Below, piece by piece: positions 2,922 through 12,619 of a stretch of 24,005 bases of DNA (the first letter of the stretch is position 1; each line of letters opens with the position of its first letter). The stretch is from a virus. Taxonomy: Duplodnaviria; Caudoviricetes. The notes beneath the pieces were generated by a model. It was not told the origin of the DNA. It ran no database searches and saw only the letters and a list, made by a program, of their open reading frames with translations. A program made the translations under genes and the position numbers. Where the stretch lies: the IMG/VR virus record IMGVR_UViG_3300016474_000160, positions 1 through 24,005 of that record; one strand, given 5' to 3'.

Positions 2922-3295
2922 AGGTAGAAAACTTTCGGCTCAACAGAGTGGTAGAAGTGAGACACAAGGGCGTATGCCTCATTAAAATCCTTAAACCACA
3001 GAGAGATATCGTCTACCTCGTCAGAGTTGTTGATAGACCCTTTTACTTCGAGGAGCCAGTCAAGTTCTGGGTTTACACCATCGTCGTTTGGGATGCTATC
3101 ACGATGGATCGGACCTTCAATGACCCCAAAGACTTCAATCTTGACTTTCCCCATTGCTATGGCTTGTTCTTCAATCTGGAAGTCAATTTGGGCATCAATA
3201 TCGTCCCACAGTTCTTCCGAGACACGTTCCCCAAACCAATCAGCAATGCTTTGAAAGAACCCATAGGCTTTGTAGTAGAATTTATCCATGTTCAT
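2918..3295 (-). CDS. Hypothetical acidic protein
   Basis: Fills the operon gap with ATGA overlaps at both ends. Confidence 0.7.
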   Translation of the reverse strand: MNMDKFYYKAYGFFQSIADWFGERVSEELWDDIDAQIDFQIEEQAIAMGKVKIEVFGVIEGPIHRDSIPNDDGVNPELDWLLEVKGSINNSDEVDDISLWFKDFNEAYALVSHFYHSVEPKVFYL

Positions 3296-3687
3296 TCTTT
3301 GATCCAATCCTCTGGGATGTGCTTGTCGGCATACTGGAACCCATGTTTAAGGCACCAATCTGCATATGTCGTCTTTGAGCCTTTATTCAGTTTGGCTTTC
3401 GAGTTAGAGAAAACGAAACGAATGTCATATTCAGGGCATTGCGTTTGAACCAATAGATGCTTCTTCCTATCAGCAGAGGTGAAACGTCCCTTACTCTCGA
3501 TAATGATGCCGTTAGGGAGCTTGAAGTCAGGGGTATACTTGCGAACCTCATTAACCTCATACTTGATCGTCAAGGTTTCATACTCGTAAGCAACACCCTT
3601 ACCCTCAAGCTCCTTAGCCAAGTCTTCTTCTAGACCAGACCTATACCCAGCAGCAATAGCTCTTTGTCGGAGCTTACTCCGCTTCAT
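3292..3687 (-). CDS. T7 endonuclease I-like Holliday junction resolvase
   Basis: YRSGLE, YTPDF.LPNGIIIESKGRF...DRKKHLLV, DIRFVF, TTYADWC.KHGF. Confidence 0.93.
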   Translation of the reverse strand: MKRSKLRQRAIAAGYRSGLEEDLAKELEGKGVAYEYETLTIKYEVNEVRKYTPDFKLPNGIIIESKGRFTSADRKKHLLVQTQCPEYDIRFVFSNSKAKLNKGSKTTYADWCLKHGFQYADKHIPEDWIKE

Positions 3688-4388
3688 TTAGGTGGCTCCC
3701 ACATTTGACCTTCTTCCCTACGCAACCAGAGTAACTGGCCATTCTCTAAAACCCTCGTGGTGTCCCCATCATAGGCATCAAGAACAGCCTTGTAAAGCTC
3801 CTGTGGGGTCTTAGAGTCTCCAAGAATTTTCTCTGCTTTCACAGGTCCAACACCTTGTAGACCAACAATATTGTCAGCCCGATCCCCTGTTAAAATCTGC
3901 TTGTAGAAGCTCCTATTTCCACTATCAGGGGTGACAAAAGTGTATTCACCAGTTGAGAAGTTGAAATGCCAACAAGGGATTTGCAGCATGTCTTTGTCAA
4001 TAGAAGCAACGACAGTTGTCTCGGGATCACTCTTAGAGGCAGCAATACCAATGGCATCATCTGCTTCTTGTCCATTGATTACGACCCCGTTCCACTTATC
4101 AACCACATGATTGCGGCAAGCATCTAGATAGATTGGCTTCTCTGTCTTTTTTCTGTTGCCTTTGTATTCTACAGTAACAGCTACATCGTATCTGAAGTTG
4201 CCCTTCCCTGTGAGGTAAGATGTGTAGTCATTCCCACTGGAAAAAACGAGCGTCTTGTCAATGATAAAGGTCATAAGATCGTCAACCTTATTCTTTGCAA
4301 GACGCTCAGTGTCGCCAGAAAAAGCGGATCGGTAGGCTACAATGTCGGCATCAACGAGTAGGGTTTTCACCAGCTTGGGATTGTTCAT
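3684..4388 (-). CDS. 5'-3' exonuclease / flap endonuclease (T7 gp6-like)
   Basis: LVDAD, YKGNR, EADD, SIDKD, GDRADNIVGLQGVGPVKA (H3TH motif). Confidence 0.92.
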   Translation of the reverse strand: MNNPKLVKTLLVDADIVAYRSAFSGDTERLAKNKVDDLMTFIIDKTLVFSSGNDYTSYLTGKGNFRYDVAVTVEYKGNRKKTEKPIYLDACRNHVVDKWNGVVINGQEADDAIGIAASKSDPETTVVASIDKDMLQIPCWHFNFSTGEYTFVTPDSGNRSFYKQILTGDRADNIVGLQGVGPVKAEKILGDSKTPQELYKAVLDAYDGDTTRVLENGQLLWLRREEGQMWEPPK

Positions 4389-5082
4389 TAGTCAATGCCT
4401 TCCATGAAACGGGGAACAGTGGTTGGATGATTGCTCCAACACAATCCGCAAGATCACGGATTTCCTTCTGGGCGTGTGAATCTTTACGCTTGTTATAGAA
4501 GTTCGCAAAGGCATAGAGGTTGCCAGTCCAAACCCAGTTGACCTCGACCCCTTGCGGGAGAACGAAACGTGCTTGCTCAGGACAAACTCCATCAGCAATC
4601 ATTGTCTCGTAAAGATCAATCATAGCTTCGCACTTAGCACGATACAAGGTCTTCCAGTAACCAGAAGACGGGTGCTTTCCATCAGACCCTTGTTTTGCCC
4701 CACCAGTAGGCTTTGACCTAAATTCGTCAGGGATAAACAGCACTGGACGAGAGCTAATGTAGCGGCGAGATTCTTCGTTTTCCACTAGACCCTGCTTATG
4801 CTTAAAGCATTGGGTTCTGATAGGAATGGGTGCAGCCATGCGAAGCTGGACAGAGGTGTGGGCGAAAGGGGTCCAATGGTCGTGTTTGGCGAGGTAGTTG
4901 ATTAGCTTGGTATCAGCTTCGGAGAGGTTCACAGGATGTCCGTTGATGGTCTGGTAGACAACCCCCTCATAGTCGTTACGACTCCCGCTGGGGAGCCACT
5001 CGCTCTCTTTGTCGAAGCTAACCCGTGCAGCATTGACTACACTAAGGTCAGACCCCATATGGTCCATATACTCTGCTTTCAT
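4351..5082 (-). CDS. thyX: Flavin-dependent thymidylate synthase
   Basis: GSDLSVVNAARVSF, HWTPF, NEESRRY, EQARFVLPQ, HAQKEIR. Start placed at the ATG at 5082. Confidence 0.93.
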   Translation of the reverse strand: MKAEYMDHMGSDLSVVNAARVSFDKESEWLPSGSRNDYEGVVYQTINGHPVNLSEADTKLINYLAKHDHWTPFAHTSVQLRMAAPIPIRTQCFKHKQGLVENEESRRYISSRPVLFIPDEFRSKPTGGAKQGSDGKHPSSGYWKTLYRAKCEAMIDLYETMIADGVCPEQARFVLPQGVEVNWVWTGNLYAFANFYNKRKDSHAQKEIRDLADCVGAIIQPLFPVSWKALTNEQSQAGENPTR

Positions 5083-5083
5083 G

Positions 5084-5278
5084 TCAGAGGTCCGTATACA
5101 CAGATTCGCCACCACCAGTGTGAAGCTCTACTTGCTCAACATAGGTATAGCCTGCACCACGCAGGAATTGCAAGAACATTTCTGCAACATCCCCAAGGAA
5201 GTCAACATTGTCCTTCGTAACAACAACAGTAGAACCGCCGAGTTTCGAATCGTCGTGGATGAAAGAAATCTGAGCCAT
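5084..5278 (-). CDS. Hypothetical protein
   Basis: ATG with AAGGA upstream; fits the operon. Confidence 0.7.
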   Translation of the reverse strand: MAQISFIHDDSKLGGSTVVVTKDNVDFLGDVAEMFLQFLRGAGYTYVEQVELHTGGGESVYTDL

Positions 5279-5289
5279 TTGTGTTGTCC

Positions 5290-5514
5290 TTATTTGGAAA
5301 TGTTACGGAAGAAGGCACCGATGAATGCCAGAGAGAAACCAAATTGCCACGGAGCCATTCCTGCAAGGCCAACAGCCGAGATAAGCTGAGTAATGGTGGC
5401 GGGGAAGAAATACCCTGCGGTAGCGCCTACAAAGGCACCCATGAGGGGATAGATGATAGCCCCAATAACGAGGAAGAAGGCCGAGATGATGGCAAAGATG
5501 ATGCCTTTGAACAT
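5290..5514 (-). CDS. Small membrane protein
   Basis: 74 aa, almost entirely hydrophobic, 2-3 TM-like segments; AGGA upstream. Confidence 0.75.
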   Translation of the reverse strand: MFKGIIFAIISAFFLVIGAIIYPLMGAFVGATAGYFFPATITQLISAVGLAGMAPWQFGFSLAFIGAFFRNISK

Positions 5515-5542
5515 TGTGTATTCCTACATTGGGGGAGTTTGT

Positions 5543-5619
5543 TGGTGCGGATGGTGGGACTCGAACCCACAGAACCCGGATTTTAAGTCCAGTATGTATA
5601 CCAATTCCATCACAACCGC
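5543..5619 (-). tRNA. tRNA-Leu(TAA), encoded CCA, short variable loop
   Basis: GCGGTTG TG ATGGAATTGGTATACAT A CTGGA CT-TAA-AA TCCGG GTTCT GTGGG TTCGAGT CCCAC CATCCGC A CCA. Confidence 0.92.
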
Positions 5620-6265
5620 ATAGTTGGTTGGCAATCCGTTAGCGCGATGACGTTGGATTGTCACCATTGCACCCTAGAGACACACGTTAACTCGATGGCC
5701 CTAGATTTCTTCATCATGGATAGTCACAGTTTAACTTCTGGCAGTATCAGTGCCTACCGTTCCTTCCACCAACCGCGACGGATCAAGCGCGACTTATAAA
5801 CCTCATTTTATAGGGGACTTATTGAGTGTGTGCAGTCCGCTGTCTTGTCTGCACTATTTCCTAAAGGATTGCGGAGGCTTCATCTTTACAGTCTGGCCAC
5901 ACTCAGAAGATCACATCCGCTTGCAAGACACAATCAGCCAGTCAGAGGCTTAGTGACAAGATGTGATCATCAGAATATGTGCGGGTTTATTTTGGTAGGA
6001 TTGCCCGCAGTCCTACGGTCCTAGGGAGCGACCCTAGTATCAAGTTGAGTGTGGTAACGTGAAAACCCGCTGTTTCGCCCGATGCTTGAGGGTCTATCGG
6101 CAAGCTGTTTCGGTCCTTGCTTCCTCTTGCCGTACTTTCGCAGACGATACCACACTCAGAAGGATTGCGCGATATGACGTATAGTCAATTCCCGTGCCAT
6201 AGGCAAAACGCAACCCACCAGAAGGTGGTTCCCGTGATAACGCCCACGGGCAGGCGTAGTTCTTT
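5620..6265 (-). ncRNA. Candidate large structured ncRNA, or cluster of ncRNAs, between two tRNAs
   Basis: No minus-strand ORF in the track. Consecutive long-range helices, an H-type pseudoknot and a duplicated module (see findings). Strand inferred from the flanking tRNAs. Confidence 0.7.
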
Positions 6266-6343
6266 TGGTCCACCCGGCAGGACTCGAACCTGCGACCCAG
6301 TGCTTAGAAGGCACTTGCTCTTATCCAACTGAGCTACGGGTGG
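6266..6343 (-). tRNA. tRNA-Arg(TCT), encoded CCA
   Basis: CCACCCG TA GCTCAGTTGGATAAGAGC A AGTGC CT-TCT-AA GCACT GGGTC GCAGG TTCGAGT CCTGC CGGGTGG A CCA. Confidence 0.95.
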
Positions 6344-6356
6344 TTTATCTTAGGTA

Positions 6357-6920
6357 TTAGACATCCCAAACGTCTGCATACTCAGATTTCTCCTGAGTGC
6401 CTTGGGTGCTGTAGGGGACATGCTCTTTGACAGCGATAGCTTCAAGACGAAGACCAGCACCATCCGAATACATGTCGAAGCGAACGATTGCCTTGGTGCC
6501 ATTCCCAAGGGGGCCATCTTCTTCGTAGTCCCACAGACGCTTGTTCTCAGGATCACGAAGGTCCACAATCTTGGGGAAGCCACCATAGTTTACTTGGGTA
6601 ACTTCTTTGGTCTTCTTGTTGGTAAACTCTTTGATATTGTCACTAGCCAGACGCTTGAGCTTCATGTATTTCCCAATACCAAACTCTTGATTGCCTTCAA
6701 TGACACGGTTGTGGTTCATCGGGGTAAGGTCCATACCGTCTTCAATCAGACGATCAAGGTCTTCTTGTTTGGTGAAGTAGGCATTGACAACAGTCTGGCC
6801 ACCCTTTGCAGCTACACCATAAGCTGCCGATTTCTTCGGTGCCTCAATATCGCCCTTGTCGTAGTTCTGGGGGAACACTTTGGCGTATTCGAGGATCATT
6901 TCCATATCGTATTTAGCCAT
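6357..6920 (-). CDS. Putative single-stranded DNA-binding protein
   Basis: Size, position next to the replication genes, a GNGTKA motif and an acidic/aromatic C-terminus (EYADVWDV). Function is inferred. Confidence 0.55.
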   Translation of the reverse strand: MAKYDMEMILEYAKVFPQNYDKGDIEAPKKSAAYGVAAKGGQTVVNAYFTKQEDLDRLIEDGMDLTPMNHNRVIEGNQEFGIGKYMKLKRLASDNIKEFTNKKTKEVTQVNYGGFPKIVDLRDPENKRLWDYEEDGPLGNGTKAIVRFDMYSDGAGLRLEAIAVKEHVPYSTQGTQEKSEYADVWDV

Positions 6921-6953
6921 GAATCTTGTCCTTTGCTGGCTCTGTATTATAGT

Positions 6954-6984
6954 ATATACTCTAAAATTAGGATTTTTGTTACCT
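6954..6984 (-). promoter_or_regulatory. Candidate phage-specific promoter AGGTAACA-N15-GAGTATAT, copy 2
   Basis: Same two 8-mers and the same 15-nt spacer as 12560-12590. Both copies are intergenic. Confidence 0.65.
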
Positions 6985-7034
6985 GTTTCTAGAGTATATT
7001 TTAGTATAGTTCAAGTGTGACTCTTTAGACACAC

Positions 7035-7271
7035 TCAATCGTCGTAGTCTTCTGCGTCGGGGTTATCTCCATAGTCACAGTAGTATTTGTAACTATAGTT
7101 TTCTTCGCCTAGAAATTGCTCGATGGCAGTCTCAAGGTTTGGACAATCAAACTCGTGTTCTACGCCATCTTGATCTACGATAACACCACGGGTTCCCCAG
7201 TCGGCGCAACAACCACAATCGTGGCTGTAGTAGTATTCGGTTGCACGAATGCTCTTGATCATTTTAACCAT
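7035..7271 (-). CDS. Hypothetical protein with a Cys/His cluster; paralog of the neighbour
   Basis: HDCGCC motif; similarity to 7264-7497. Start uncertain (7271 or 7262). Confidence 0.65.
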   Translation of the reverse strand: MVKMIKSIRATEYYYSHDCGCCADWGTRGVIVDQDGVEHEFDCPNLETAIEQFLGEENYSYKYYCDYGDNPDAEDYDD

Positions 7272-7497
7272 AGTTGTGACCATCCCAATACACAGATTTT
7301 CTTTTGACTTTTGTCTCTAGCTCTGTTAGGCCAAAGAATTTGACGATAGCTTCTTCCAAAGAATAAGTGTCAAACCTATACTTCTTGTCGTTTTGGTCTG
7401 TGATCTGAATGTAAAGATTTGGCGTGTCGATAGGATACACCCCATCAAGAACAGGGTATTCAGTCACGGCAACCACCCGCTTGATCATTTTGCTCAT
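7264..7497 (-). CDS. Hypothetical protein
   Basis: ATGA coupling to the upstream gene, GGAG RBS. Confidence 0.7.
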   Translation of the reverse strand: MSKMIKRVVAVTEYPVLDGVYPIDTPNLYIQITDQNDKKYRFDTYSLEEAIVKFFGLTELETKVKRKSVYWDGHNYG

Positions 7498-7670
7498 TTC
7501 ATCTCTCCAATGAGATCAACAAGAGCCACATCTTCGTGGTTCAGTTTGTCAAAGAGTTCTCGATCAACTGCATCAGCCTCAAGCAGTTTATTCAGGATGA
7601 AGACCCCACGCATGAGGTGATACAGGTCTTCTACATCAATTTCAATAGTGCGGTTAGTGGACATCTGCAT
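7494..7670 (-). CDS. Hypothetical protein
   Basis: GGAGAG RBS before the ATG at 7670; overlaps the end of the polymerase gene. Confidence 0.6.
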   Translation of the reverse strand: MQMSTNRTIEIDVEDLYHLMRGVFILNKLLEADAVDRELFDKLNHEDVALVDLIGEMK

Positions 7671-9561
7671 AGTTCTCTCCATAGTGCCAGTCAGACCCAA
7701 CAGGGACATTAAGTTGAAGTTTTTGGTTTAGCCTCGTGATAGCGTCTTGGTTGATGCTGTCACACTCTTGTTTTCCATCACGGGGGATATACCCAAGATA
7801 CTCATCGTGGTATTGCATGATCACAGGGATGCCAGATTGGATAATGATTGCCAACCAGTTATCAAACACATAAACACCCGTGCTTTGGTTAAGTGTAGAG
7901 AAGATATCCTTGGCGTTTCGAAGACTGTGCCAGAAACCAGAGACAGGGTTCTGTAGCCACATAGAGCCATCCTTAAGCACCTTCGTCTTCTGCATAGAAG
8001 AAACCTTCTTGATGGACCAGTTGCGTTCCCAGTAGGCATTGATGAGCAAGGAAGCCTCTGAAACAGAGGTGTTCAAGGTTCTTGCAAGTTTTGGTGCGCC
8101 TACCCCATAGACGCAGCTATAGTTAGCTGCCTTAAAATTCTTACGGATGGGTTTCAGGTGTTTTGCCCCACCACCAGCATACTCGTCAATTTCTTCCTGT
8201 GTGCAAGCACCAGCATATTTTGCAAGGTCAAGGTGTGGGTCGAAGCCTTCCCTAGACATTTCCTCGACATACTCTGGATCAAGTGGTTGCATGTAGTGGC
8301 GTTTGGTAGTATCCTCAAGACTAACCATGTCTGCACCAATAAGAACATGGTCGTCAGAAGGTGCCAAGATACAAGAGCGGATCAACTCACCATAAGGCTT
8401 ATCAACACCCGGCAGGTTCACGAGTGGCGCTCTGTGCTTGAACCTGAACGTATTTGTTAGACCGTCAATCTTACTTTCGATCCAGTGGGTGCCATCCTCC
8501 TTCTGGAAAGCAAGATCACGAAATCCCTTAAGAATACCGATCCTGTGGTTTAGAACCGTCAGACCATCCAAAAAGTGAATAGCCGGGTCGTGTTCAGAAA
8601 GGTCCAATACAGACGGACATAACTCCCCGTCTTTTCTGACCTGTTCGATCTGTCGCTCTGTTCCATCGTCGTCTTTCACAAACTTGTAGGTCAGAGGTTG
8701 CCACCCCAATCCCCACAACCAGTTTTTAACCTGCATGGTAGACGATGGGTTGCCATCTTCGTAACCTGTGATTACCTTGATAGGACCAGCCGTATCGCTC
8801 GGCAGTCCAGCTTCCTTGAGGTGTTCAAACCAGCGTTTGCCAGCTTCGCTGAGTGTCCCATCTTTCTTGTAGACGTGCTTGGGCTTATTCACTACCTTGG
8901 TCAGAACAACTTTTGGCATTGCCTTGGAAAGTTCTGCTTCTTTCTCGTCCCTGAGCTTCTGTAGCTCATCTAAGCTGTTTGTAACCTTGTTGTAGTCAAT
9001 ACGGATGCCCTCAGCCTCAGCCTTAGCTGCACACTCCATCTTGAAGCTAAGATAGCGTAGAAGGCGGGTTGCATCGGGGGTCAAGGAACCATCTGCATTC
9101 TGACCATAGAGGGCAACAAGCTTGTTTCTCAAGCGTTTCCAGAGACGGACGTTGATCTTAACGTCTTCCTCACAGCGATGCGTATATTCCTCTTGGGTCA
9201 GGTTGTCCCAGTTCTCAATACTTGGTTTCTTGATGCCAAAGGTTTCCCCATAAGCGTCAAGGCCATAGCGAAGACCTTTCTCACCACGCTCGTAGTCTAG
9301 ATACCATGCAAGGGCCAGAGTGTCAACAACAATCGTGTCTTTTCCATTGGAAATCCCAAAGAGCTTTTTTAGGGCTGGGAGGTCAAAGCGACAGATGTTA
9401 TGGCCAATCAGAAGGTCAGTATCAAAAACACGAGAGACTGTTTCTGCATCATATCCGCTCTTGGGTTCCTTTTCAGTCATGTCCTGCCAAGAGATAACGT
9501 GGAGTTTGTCCAGCTTGGTCAGGAAACCATTGGTTTCAATGTCAAAAACAGTCTCTCTCAT
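7654..9561 (-). CDS. polA: Family A DNA polymerase with 3'-5' exonuclease domain
   Basis: VFDIET, GHNICRFD, RCEEDV; motif A GADMVSLE, motif B RKNFKAANYSCVYG, motif C YHDE. Confidence 0.95.
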   Translation of the reverse strand: MRETVFDIETNGFLTKLDKLHVISWQDMTEKEPKSGYDAETVSRVFDTDLLIGHNICRFDLPALKKLFGISNGKDTIVVDTLALAWYLDYERGEKGLRYGLDAYGETFGIKKPSIENWDNLTQEEYTHRCEEDVKINVRLWKRLRNKLVALYGQNADGSLTPDATRLLRYLSFKMECAAKAEAEGIRIDYNKVTNSLDELQKLRDEKEAELSKAMPKVVLTKVVNKPKHVYKKDGTLSEAGKRWFEHLKEAGLPSDTAGPIKVITGYEDGNPSSTMQVKNWLWGLGWQPLTYKFVKDDDGTERQIEQVRKDGELCPSVLDLSEHDPAIHFLDGLTVLNHRIGILKGFRDLAFQKEDGTHWIESKIDGLTNTFRFKHRAPLVNLPGVDKPYGELIRSCILAPSDDHVLIGADMVSLEDTTKRHYMQPLDPEYVEEMSREGFDPHLDLAKYAGACTQEEIDEYAGGGAKHLKPIRKNFKAANYSCVYGVGAPKLARTLNTSVSEASLLINAYWERNWSIKKVSSMQKTKVLKDGSMWLQNPVSGFWHSLRNAKDIFSTLNQSTGVYVFDNWLAIIIQSGIPVIMQYHDEYLGYIPRDGKQECDSINQDAITRLNQKLQLNVPVGSDWHYGENYADVH

Positions 9562-11745: not shown

Positions 11746-12402
11746 CTACCCCTTTATATTGTCTACATATAGAATGTCTACTGGGCCACCGGGAATATCA
11801 TCATCAAACACCCCAATAGCAAGTGTCCCTCGAAAGACAGCCCAAATGTCAAGATTGGTTCGGTTTTGGAACAACTCTACTTGTCTCTTTGGGGTATGAC
11901 CATGAACCACATGTTTCCCTCTGTAGCCACCACCGTCTTCCCCAGTGCAGTATCTTCCCCACAGTAGTGCATCATCTGTGTGTTCGTCAAGATCAAGTCC
12001 ACCATACACAGAAGCGTGAACATATACCCGATGGGTGTCTTCGTGATACTTGGGCAACCGTCCGGCCCAATCAGCATCCCAGAGCATTTCTTCCTCTAGG
12101 GGGACACCATAACTGTCGATGGTTTCAAGTCCACCATTGATGCACCACAGATACCTCGCTTGGTCATCTGCCCCACAAAGAGCGTCGTAGAACATCTGTT
12201 CGTGGTTCCCCCGTAGGGCCACTGCCCCACACTCTAGAACCAGTCTACGGACGATCTGAATGACCCCACGGCTATCTTGTCCACGGTCAATGTAATCCCC
12301 AAGAAAGATCAGCTTGGATTTGTAGTCATAGTGGGTATTCAGAAATTTCGACAACAAGTCCCTACGTCCATGTAGGTCTGGGACAACATAAGTTTTGGAC
12401 AT
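11746..12402 (-). CDS. Metallophosphoesterase (lambda NinI-like Ser/Thr phosphatase family)
   Basis: DLHG, GDYIDRG, RGNHE, VHA, HGHTP. Start at 12402 after AAAGGA. Confidence 0.92.
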   Translation of the reverse strand: MSKTYVVPDLHGRRDLLSKFLNTHYDYKSKLIFLGDYIDRGQDSRGVIQIVRRLVLECGAVALRGNHEQMFYDALCGADDQARYLWCINGGLETIDSYGVPLEEEMLWDADWAGRLPKYHEDTHRVYVHASVYGGLDLDEHTDDALLWGRYCTGEDGGGYRGKHVVHGHTPKRQVELFQNRTNLDIWAVFRGTLAIGVFDDDIPGGPVDILYVDNIKG

Positions 12403-12447
12403 ATGTGTGTGTGATCCTTTCATTGCGACTACAAAAAATAGTGGAGA

Positions 12448-12533
12448 AACTTAAGTTTCATACACTTGTTCTGTTGTTTCTTGTTATTGTATATTGTTTA
12501 AGAGTAGAGACACAAGTGTTAGAAACTTAAGTT
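12448..12533. repeat. 22-bp imperfect inverted repeat with a 42-nt AT-rich loop
   Basis: AACTTAAGTTTCATACACTTGT (12448-12469) versus ACAAGTGTTAGAAACTTAAGTT (12512-12533); 20 of 22 positions complementary. Confidence 0.8.
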
Positions 12534-12559
12534 CAACCCCCTACCCCCTTCATATAGGG

Positions 12560-12590
12560 ATATACTCCAAAATCTCGAAAAATGTTACCT
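12560..12590 (-). promoter_or_regulatory. Candidate phage-specific promoter AGGTAACA-N15-GAGTATAT, copy 1
   Basis: Matches 6954-6984 and heads the replication operon. Confidence 0.65.
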
Positions 12591-12619
12591 AGAACCAGAA
12601 AAAAAATAAAAGAAAGTTT

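Follow-up and report, generated by a model that had tools for sequence, protein, structure and literature searches.

A string of interchangeable folded RNA units between two phage tRNA genes, with a putative RNase III cut-and-refold frame

The role of the non-tRNA RNAs in phage tRNA clusters has been open since T4 RNAC and RNAD (the species 1 and 2 RNAs), which are seen on Northern blots and to which PMC9697503 assigns no known function. Other RNAs of this setting include GOLLD and ROOL, single molecules with a fixed architecture (PMC12286853), and the theta (HDV-like) ribozymes (PMC10879173), while PMC9964418 covers only phage RNAs known to Rfam. The locus described here resembles GOLLD and ROOL in being phage-borne, near tRNA genes and of similar total length, but differs from them in being a shuffled string with no Rfam match. 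Similarly, it resembles theta ribozymes as a predicted processing device beside phage tRNAs, but lacks a convincing HDV topology or a hammerhead core, and its processing would need a host enzyme. The reading that fits best is of an accessory RNA set like RNAC and RNAD, for whose release a cut-and-refold relay driven by RNase III is the likely route.

Genomic setting and units of the array

The window (the whole stretch of DNA analysed, 24,005 nt) is an entire linear 24-kb virus record (48% complete), with all genes on the minus strand, among them those for PolA, a primase/helicase, ThyX, ribonucleotide reductase and rIIA/B. Because its closest cultured relative is Roseobacter phage CRP-6 (48% in the polymerase and 58% in the 187-aa gene upstream of the array), the host is probably an alphaproteobacterium; close relatives of the window came mainly from freshwater and estuary runs. 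Genes are tightly packed (median gap 3 nt), as the initial annotation had stated, and the two flanking tRNA genes that it proposed, both confirmed, occupy together with the 646 nt between them (5620–6265) a gap of 842 nt, the largest of 43 counted between minus-strand ORFs of our choosing. Its claim that this stretch carries no sense-strand ORF needs qualification, as two short ORFs on the minus strand (52 and 59 codons) begin within tRNA-Arg and extend into the stretch, neither with a PHROG match. CRP-6 has neither tRNA nor array at the corresponding place and L004 has tRNA-Leu directly behind the matching gene with no array, and the array is therefore accessory; 44 of the 50 phage records searched, CRP-6 among them, are without it.

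What fills the stretch is a series of folded RNA units, each inherited on its own, and not a single RNA. In order of transcription, the block consists of the following features (strands U, M and D are defined below):

6266–6343, minus strand: tRNA-Arg(TCT), first RNA in the block, 14 nt past the stop of the 187-aa gene
6231–6255, minus strand: hairpin H1, stem 6250–6245/6236–6231 with an invariant 8-nt loop
6170–6208, minus strand: frame 1 cargo, inside the U:M helix, divergent or replaced in relatives
6045–6158, minus strand: unit A, a 15-bp M:D closing stem around a GAAA hairpin and two arms
6021–6037, minus strand: 6-bp hairpin, with a two-sided change at 6023/6035 in runs X4 and X7
5980–6016, minus strand: H-type pseudoknot candidate, both stems of which pair
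5906–5969, minus strand: unit C, an irregular hairpin and predicted 64-nt product
5822–5905, minus strand: unit B, closed by an M:D stem as in A, with an interior unrelated to that of A
5794–5821, minus strand: short weak hairpin; the L140 version is longer and contains a unit also present in L180
5626–5793, minus strand: unit E, ~170 nt, conserved in L140, L084 and L180, with an invariant 5' 20-mer
5543–5619, minus strand: tRNA-Leu(TAA), final RNA in the block

The helices drawn in the initial annotation hold, the eight arms tested pairing at 14/15, 6/6, 9/9, 8/8, 6/6, 6/6 and 6/7 (the pseudoknot) and 6/6. The pseudoknot candidate is invariant among 40 of the 58 differences in relatives, and thus receives no support from covariation, and the closing helix of the 3' domain pairs, with conservation reaching further 5' than drawn (~5792) and an ambiguous fold: one variable arm of unit E stays paired and three global folds, that of the annotation included, fit about equally. 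Comparison with shuffled sequences yielded a modest signal for the stretch as a whole (z −1.9, with 1 of 20 shuffles equally good). Unit by unit, z ranged from −2.6 to −2.9 for H1 with U, A and C, and was −2.1 for the hairpin with the pseudoknot, −1.2 for B and +0.25 for E, which folds no better than shuffles, against a background mean of −0.33 (5 of 45 windows below −2). Conservation with pair-keeping changes is stronger support than folding energy, and related phages do keep the units in this manner. For example, four substitutions in the closing stem of unit A (read by hand) keep pairing in relatives, three yielding minus-strand G-U pairs and one mending a mismatch; because the G-U pairs arise only there, the tRNA (minus) strand is probably the folded one. 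Similarly, one stem pair of H1 appears as C-G, G-C and A-U across seven aligned copies, and the stem of unit C, which is 89–94% identical in L084 and L086, has three pairs with two-sided change among three sequences. The arm loops of unit A repeat AAGCA..CGAAACAG, and the arms themselves (6069–6087 and 6104–6122) form a direct repeat with 35-nt spacing, one copy of which is missing from a low-depth X9 contig.

No recognised family covers the stretch, as had been annotated. With Rfam 15 (including GOLLD, ROOL, manA, tmRNA, RNase P and riboswitches), only the two tRNAs reach gathering level and the best non-tRNA match in the stretch scores 15 bits (E 1.1); the window copy of H1 likewise matches no Rfam family. 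Possible further likenesses, to retron, Y RNA, SRP, sarcin-ricin loop, box C/D and rrn boxC, were compared through Rfam only. The stretch matches none of 50,697 cultured phage records, and the L084 and L180 arrays share only short words with them. True loci made up three of the closing-stem pattern hits in IMG/VR, 1 of 30 in metagenomes and 0 of 19 in genomes; the 16-mer of unit C gave 3 of 36, the 17-mer of unit E 2 of 6 and its 21-mer, in genomes, 0 of 4, and an M partner accompanied none of the 47 hits to the U pattern in genomes. A search of 401 sampled genomes from the family to which the Rhodobacteraceae bin G049 belongs, run without positive control, did not detect the array, and in 44 sources a model of unit E (R1) recovered nothing beyond the four loci on which it was trained. 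No antisense target longer than 13 nt occurs in the phage's own contig. A permissive descriptor, seeking an HDV-like nested double pseudoknot with a catalytic C or a hammerhead core (CUGANGA/GAAA), gave six poor overlapping hits in the window versus 15 on an antisense control strand and no hammerhead core, and was rejected, as was an HDV-like hit in L086 whose P2 partner sits in a tRNA-like unit.

Several further observations concern the surroundings of the array. H1 occurs alone between genes in unrelated phages and in a Dehalococcoidia bin (L178, L179, L182, L184, L185 and L202; match near 1501, or 1303 in L179), often directly after apparent ssDNA-binding or recombinase genes, its stem covarying and its loop invariant. 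A Bryobacterales bin holds at least nine identical copies of a repeat of at least 100 nt that matches the U pattern by chance (L220, L222, L231, L246, L248, L251, L255, L259 and L264). Within the window, the second-largest gene-free gap lies at 12424–12619 (196 nt), lowering the ARAGORN threshold yields weak tRNA-like folds at 12356–12432 and 12504–12589, among many false calls, and a contig of RNA run X15 skips 390 nt at 7264–7653 (small ORFs between the polymerase and an 82-aa gene), another variable spot. RNA runs X9, X15, X17 and X20, available as contigs only, span 27–29 of the 30 bins of 3000–9000, flanking protein genes included, so that this coverage is not diagnostic for expression of the stretch. 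A promoter scan gave nothing exceeding shuffles in the window or ahead of the L084 and L180 arrays; by eye only, TTGACA precedes these two arrays and a GC-rich hairpin follows each. A terminator-like call at 6228–6215 was rejected, as it is strand U and its homologs have no U-tract.

Unit exchange and the U-M-D frame

Pattern searches identified homologous units in three IMG/VR phages and in the metagenome contig L140 (90% identical). The lineages differ in their replication genes: L084 (the same as L085) and L180 encode a primase and, in the parts examined, no polymerase, L084 also encodes RecE/RecT, the arrays of both L084 and L180 follow lysis genes, and L086, which resembles Achromobacter phage JWF, has a different polymerase. 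Across these lineages the non-coding units are 78–94% identical. Their order varies, from tRNA-Met, C, another stem-closed unit, H1, further units and E in L084, to H1, two tRNA-like units, E and tRNA-Tyr in L180, and a tRNA-like unit, C and the unit of L084 in L086; H1, for example, lies 5' of C in the window and 3' of C in L084. Contigs of close relatives carry a different 143–144 nt in place of unit E in three studies and 107 bases in place of 6160–6224 in one study, and have the interior of unit A replaced in others. These comparisons show that related and unrelated phages swap array units singly, which supports the array of small RNAs offered as one alternative by the initial annotation; that annotation ascribed release to the flanking tRNAs, but processing stems of its own seem to be present in the array. 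Because the cargoes turn over like accessory genes, we tentatively infer that they could be accessory RNAs that bind or decoy host proteins, a view to which we give somewhat less than an even chance.

A hairpin, GACAGCCGG(G)AAAGAC(C/T)GGC, is present in L084 (1675–1697) and twice in L086 (1321–1342 and 1708–1729), and is also intergenic in cultured Ralstonia, Pseudomonas, Stenotrophomonas and enterobacterial phages. L180 carries at 1886–1990 a tRNA-like unit (26 bits) in an M:D stem, with a 12-bp acceptor helix, a 4-nt loop replacing the anticodon loop and a long variable arm, and the atypical tRNA-like unit of L086 (1346–1431) shares 75% identity with the tRNA-Lys annotated in Achromobacter phage JWF. 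The word CCATAGGC in a cargo loop of L084 and L086 (L084 1560–1572) is complementary to the start of the frame 1 cargo (6195–6210) and to L084 1736–1745, which may be chance.

Comparison of the arrays with themselves brought out long imperfect inverted repeats. A three-strand frame recurs in them, with strand U followed by cargo 1, strand M, cargo 2 and strand D. The window contains two copies:

6209–6229, minus strand: frame 1 strand U, pairing with 6169–6149; predicted cut 6218/6217
6149–6169, minus strand: frame 1 strand M, common to U:M and M:D; predicted cut 6159/6158
6045–6060, minus strand: frame 1 strand D, the 3' arm of unit A
5961–5981, minus strand: frame 2 strand U, the 5' arm of unit C; predicted cut 5970/5969
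5896–5916, minus strand: frame 2 strand M; predicted cut 5906/5905

Recurrent TTCTG(A) words had been annotated as lying just 5' of four domains. The words exist, as TTCTGA at 6161, 5975 and 5908 and as TTCTGG at 6223, but they are the U and M strands of the two frames, that is, paired strands of two copies of one helix. In all eight complete copies (two each in the window, L084, L086 and L180; a ninth, in L140, is truncated), the M word CWGAGYGYGG has an upstream U partner 61–116 nt off, in a single register and with 17–19 of 21 positions paired. Outside three mismatch columns, which were excluded from the count, 13 pairs are 95% paired and five show two-sided change, a value reached by 0 of 500 shuffles and compared with 35–49% in slid controls, although the copies share ancestry and the counts are thus inflated and not independent. 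The irregularities are themselves regular, with position 13 unpaired in every copy, position 10 a U-U in six and position 6 unpaired in six. For seven of the eight M strands there is a further partner downstream, D, which closes the second cargo, and this M:D stem encloses five unrelated interiors, with two two-sided changes (U-A/C-G) in seven rows. D pairs with the same ten M bases as the outer half of U, and U:M and M:D are therefore mutually exclusive. Each U adjoins a folded element; in L084 and L086 this neighbour is a tRNA or a tRNA-like unit, abutted at its CCA end. Applied to 2.46 Mb of partly redundant sequence, a frame descriptor recovered its source copies and one hit within coding DNA. 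No description of the frame was found in the literature searched, a scope outside which most subscription papers and the supplementary viral RNA catalogues fall.

The frame strands also coincide with the borders of exchange. Of 13 distinct joint ends in relatives (near-identical ends merged, one whole-spacer joint excluded and several taken from contigs of depth <5), nine fall in frame strands, which make up 18% of the sequence (P 6e-5 if random), and in one low-depth contig position 14 of one U is joined to position 15 of the other. The conserved strands likely double as crossover points for cargo exchange, with the qualification that alignment alone would gather ends in conserved flanks.

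A predicted cut-and-refold relay and its alternatives

RNase III recognises a helix of ~22 bp, cuts it to give 2-nt 3' overhangs and favours a paired, G-C-rich doublet between its cuts (PMC6212723); G-C and C-G are excluded at pb4, with A-U or U-A at pb2 and, for the E. coli enzyme, A-U at pb3, G-C at pb1 and UA/UG in the distal box (PMC1540722), a box that may vary across phylogeny (PMC1540722). The U:M helix fits this length in all eight copies. Between the predicted cuts, position 11 is G-C and position 12 is paired in 8/8, pb4 (positions 10 and 13) is G-C or C-G in 0/16, in line with the pb4 rule, and the outer half of pb2 (position 8) is U-A in 8/8, its inner half being G-C in 4/8. Against the E. 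coli consensus, pb3 is mostly C-G or G-C, outer pb1 is U-G in 7/8 and the outer end is C-G. Scored with the E. coli pair matrix (PMC6212723, Table S4; host probably alphaproteobacterial) over 14 registers, the register with cuts around positions 11–12, which had been chosen beforehand, has the best mean with both pseudocounts and is best in 7/8 copies (0.5) or 4/8 (0.01); random helices with the same mismatches select it in 5–19% of trials. Five copies beat threaded controls (0.004–0.054), whereas the window copies (0.38 and 0.14) and L086a (0.26) do not, and at pseudocount 0.5 six of the eight reach at least the 5th percentile of sites drawn from the matrix to represent double cuts in vivo, with window frame 1 below the 1st. 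On balance we consider it moderately probable that U:M is cut by RNase III, and give marginally less credence, still a little above even, to the fuller reading in which the stretch comprises units in two three-strand frames whose U:M is cut so that M re-pairs with D.

Under this relay, the array would be transcribed together with the tRNAs and U:M would form first during RNA synthesis. Host RNase III would then make staggered cuts that flank the G-C doublet of helix positions 11–12 (6218/6217 with 6159/6158, and 5970/5969 with 5906/5905); the upper cut would give the upstream element its 3' end, cargo 1 would be freed, cargo 2 would begin at the first base of its own stem, and the freed M would pair anew with D, so that the next unit becomes a closed small RNA in its own right. 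The predicted products before trimming are 59 nt (6217–6159), ~189 nt (A with the hairpin and pseudoknot), 64 nt and ~286 nt (B to E). The lower predicted cut lies where the M:D stem begins, at its first base; the upper one falls 12 nt past the folded element in each case, or 8 nt past the CCA of the L084 tRNA-Met. In predicted folding, the outer part of U:M reaches 0.83–0.99 once M has been synthesised and the cut product forms M:D at 0.96–1.00 in 7/7, compared with 0.00 to 1.00 in uncut RNA.

An alternative is that the frame acts within an intact transcript as a folding device or switch, in which U holds M until D displaces it, insulating units or binding a protein. M:D can indeed displace U without a cut (1.00 in the window copy winA and 0.83 in L084a) and beats the outer U:M at equilibrium in 4/7 copies, positions 10 and 13, which are consistently left unpaired, could serve a protein as binding site, and the window copies are weak as RNase III sites. 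Both L086 copies, however, keep U:M (0.95) and form M:D only after a cut, and a switch leaves the 21-bp length and the register match as coincidence; we regard it as unlikely. A tRNA-like release is more doubtful again. RNase P would cleave on the 5' side of the G in the M:D stem (U at −1), in keeping with its cleavage preferences and with the stem mimicking an acceptor helix, RNase E and exonucleases would make the 3' ends, and U:M would be incidental or regulatory. Two of the L180 cargoes resemble tRNAs, as does one unit of L086, and T4 RNAC ends with a T-arm, but the window units have no T-loop motif and none has a CCA end, and the covariation of U with M is left unexplained. A neutral spacer of decayed tRNAs and mobile hairpins, without selection as RNA, would suit the modest whole-stretch z and the many phage records without the array, but is very improbable given the identity of non-coding units across lineages with different replication genes, the pair-keeping changes and the restriction of G-U pairs to the tRNA strand. 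The other proposal of the initial annotation, a single 646-nt ornate RNA of the GOLLD/ROOL kind, shares the size and tRNA-adjacent place of those RNAs (PMC12286853), but is largely refuted and has the least probability of all, as unit order varies among phages, units are replaced singly in close relatives, Rfam gives no match and no conserved helix spans the whole.

Comparison with known systems

If the relay holds, it would offer a compact route from one transcript to end-protected small RNAs that might be put to use in synthetic RNA arrays. Because the frame is defined, exact RNA ends can be predicted from it, which makes the array testable unit by unit, and it provides a search handle for cargo RNAs that have no common sequence. 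More speculatively, and rather unlikely in our judgement, the U-M-D frame could be a portable standard socket combining nuclease site, product end-cap and crossover point, through which unrelated phages trade non-coding effector RNAs (possibly anti-defence decoys) as integrons trade cassettes.

Like T4 RNAC and RNAD, the array consists of folded non-tRNA RNAs beside a tRNA gene (120–140 nt in T4). Unlike them, it contains many interchangeable units in a repeated frame; BLAST detects no likeness, and RNAC has a T-arm, a feature with no counterpart in the window units. The U:M helix recalls the T7 R1.1 site and the 16S and 23S rRNA stalks, in which an irregular helix of about two turns forms from the flanks of the released unit (PMC8708148, PMC1540722, PMC6212723), and, as in RNase III processing stems, weak pairs adjoin the predicted cuts (PMC8708148, PMC1540722, PMC6212723). 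Unlike the E. coli RNase III consensus, frames of the window type differ in pb3 and the distal box, and in contrast to the T7 and rRNA stems, the M strand of the window has a second, downstream partner and would become the 5' arm of the next RNA, with cuts that are here predicted. What is specific to the array is thus the proposed relay through a shared strand, together with exchange among three lineages.
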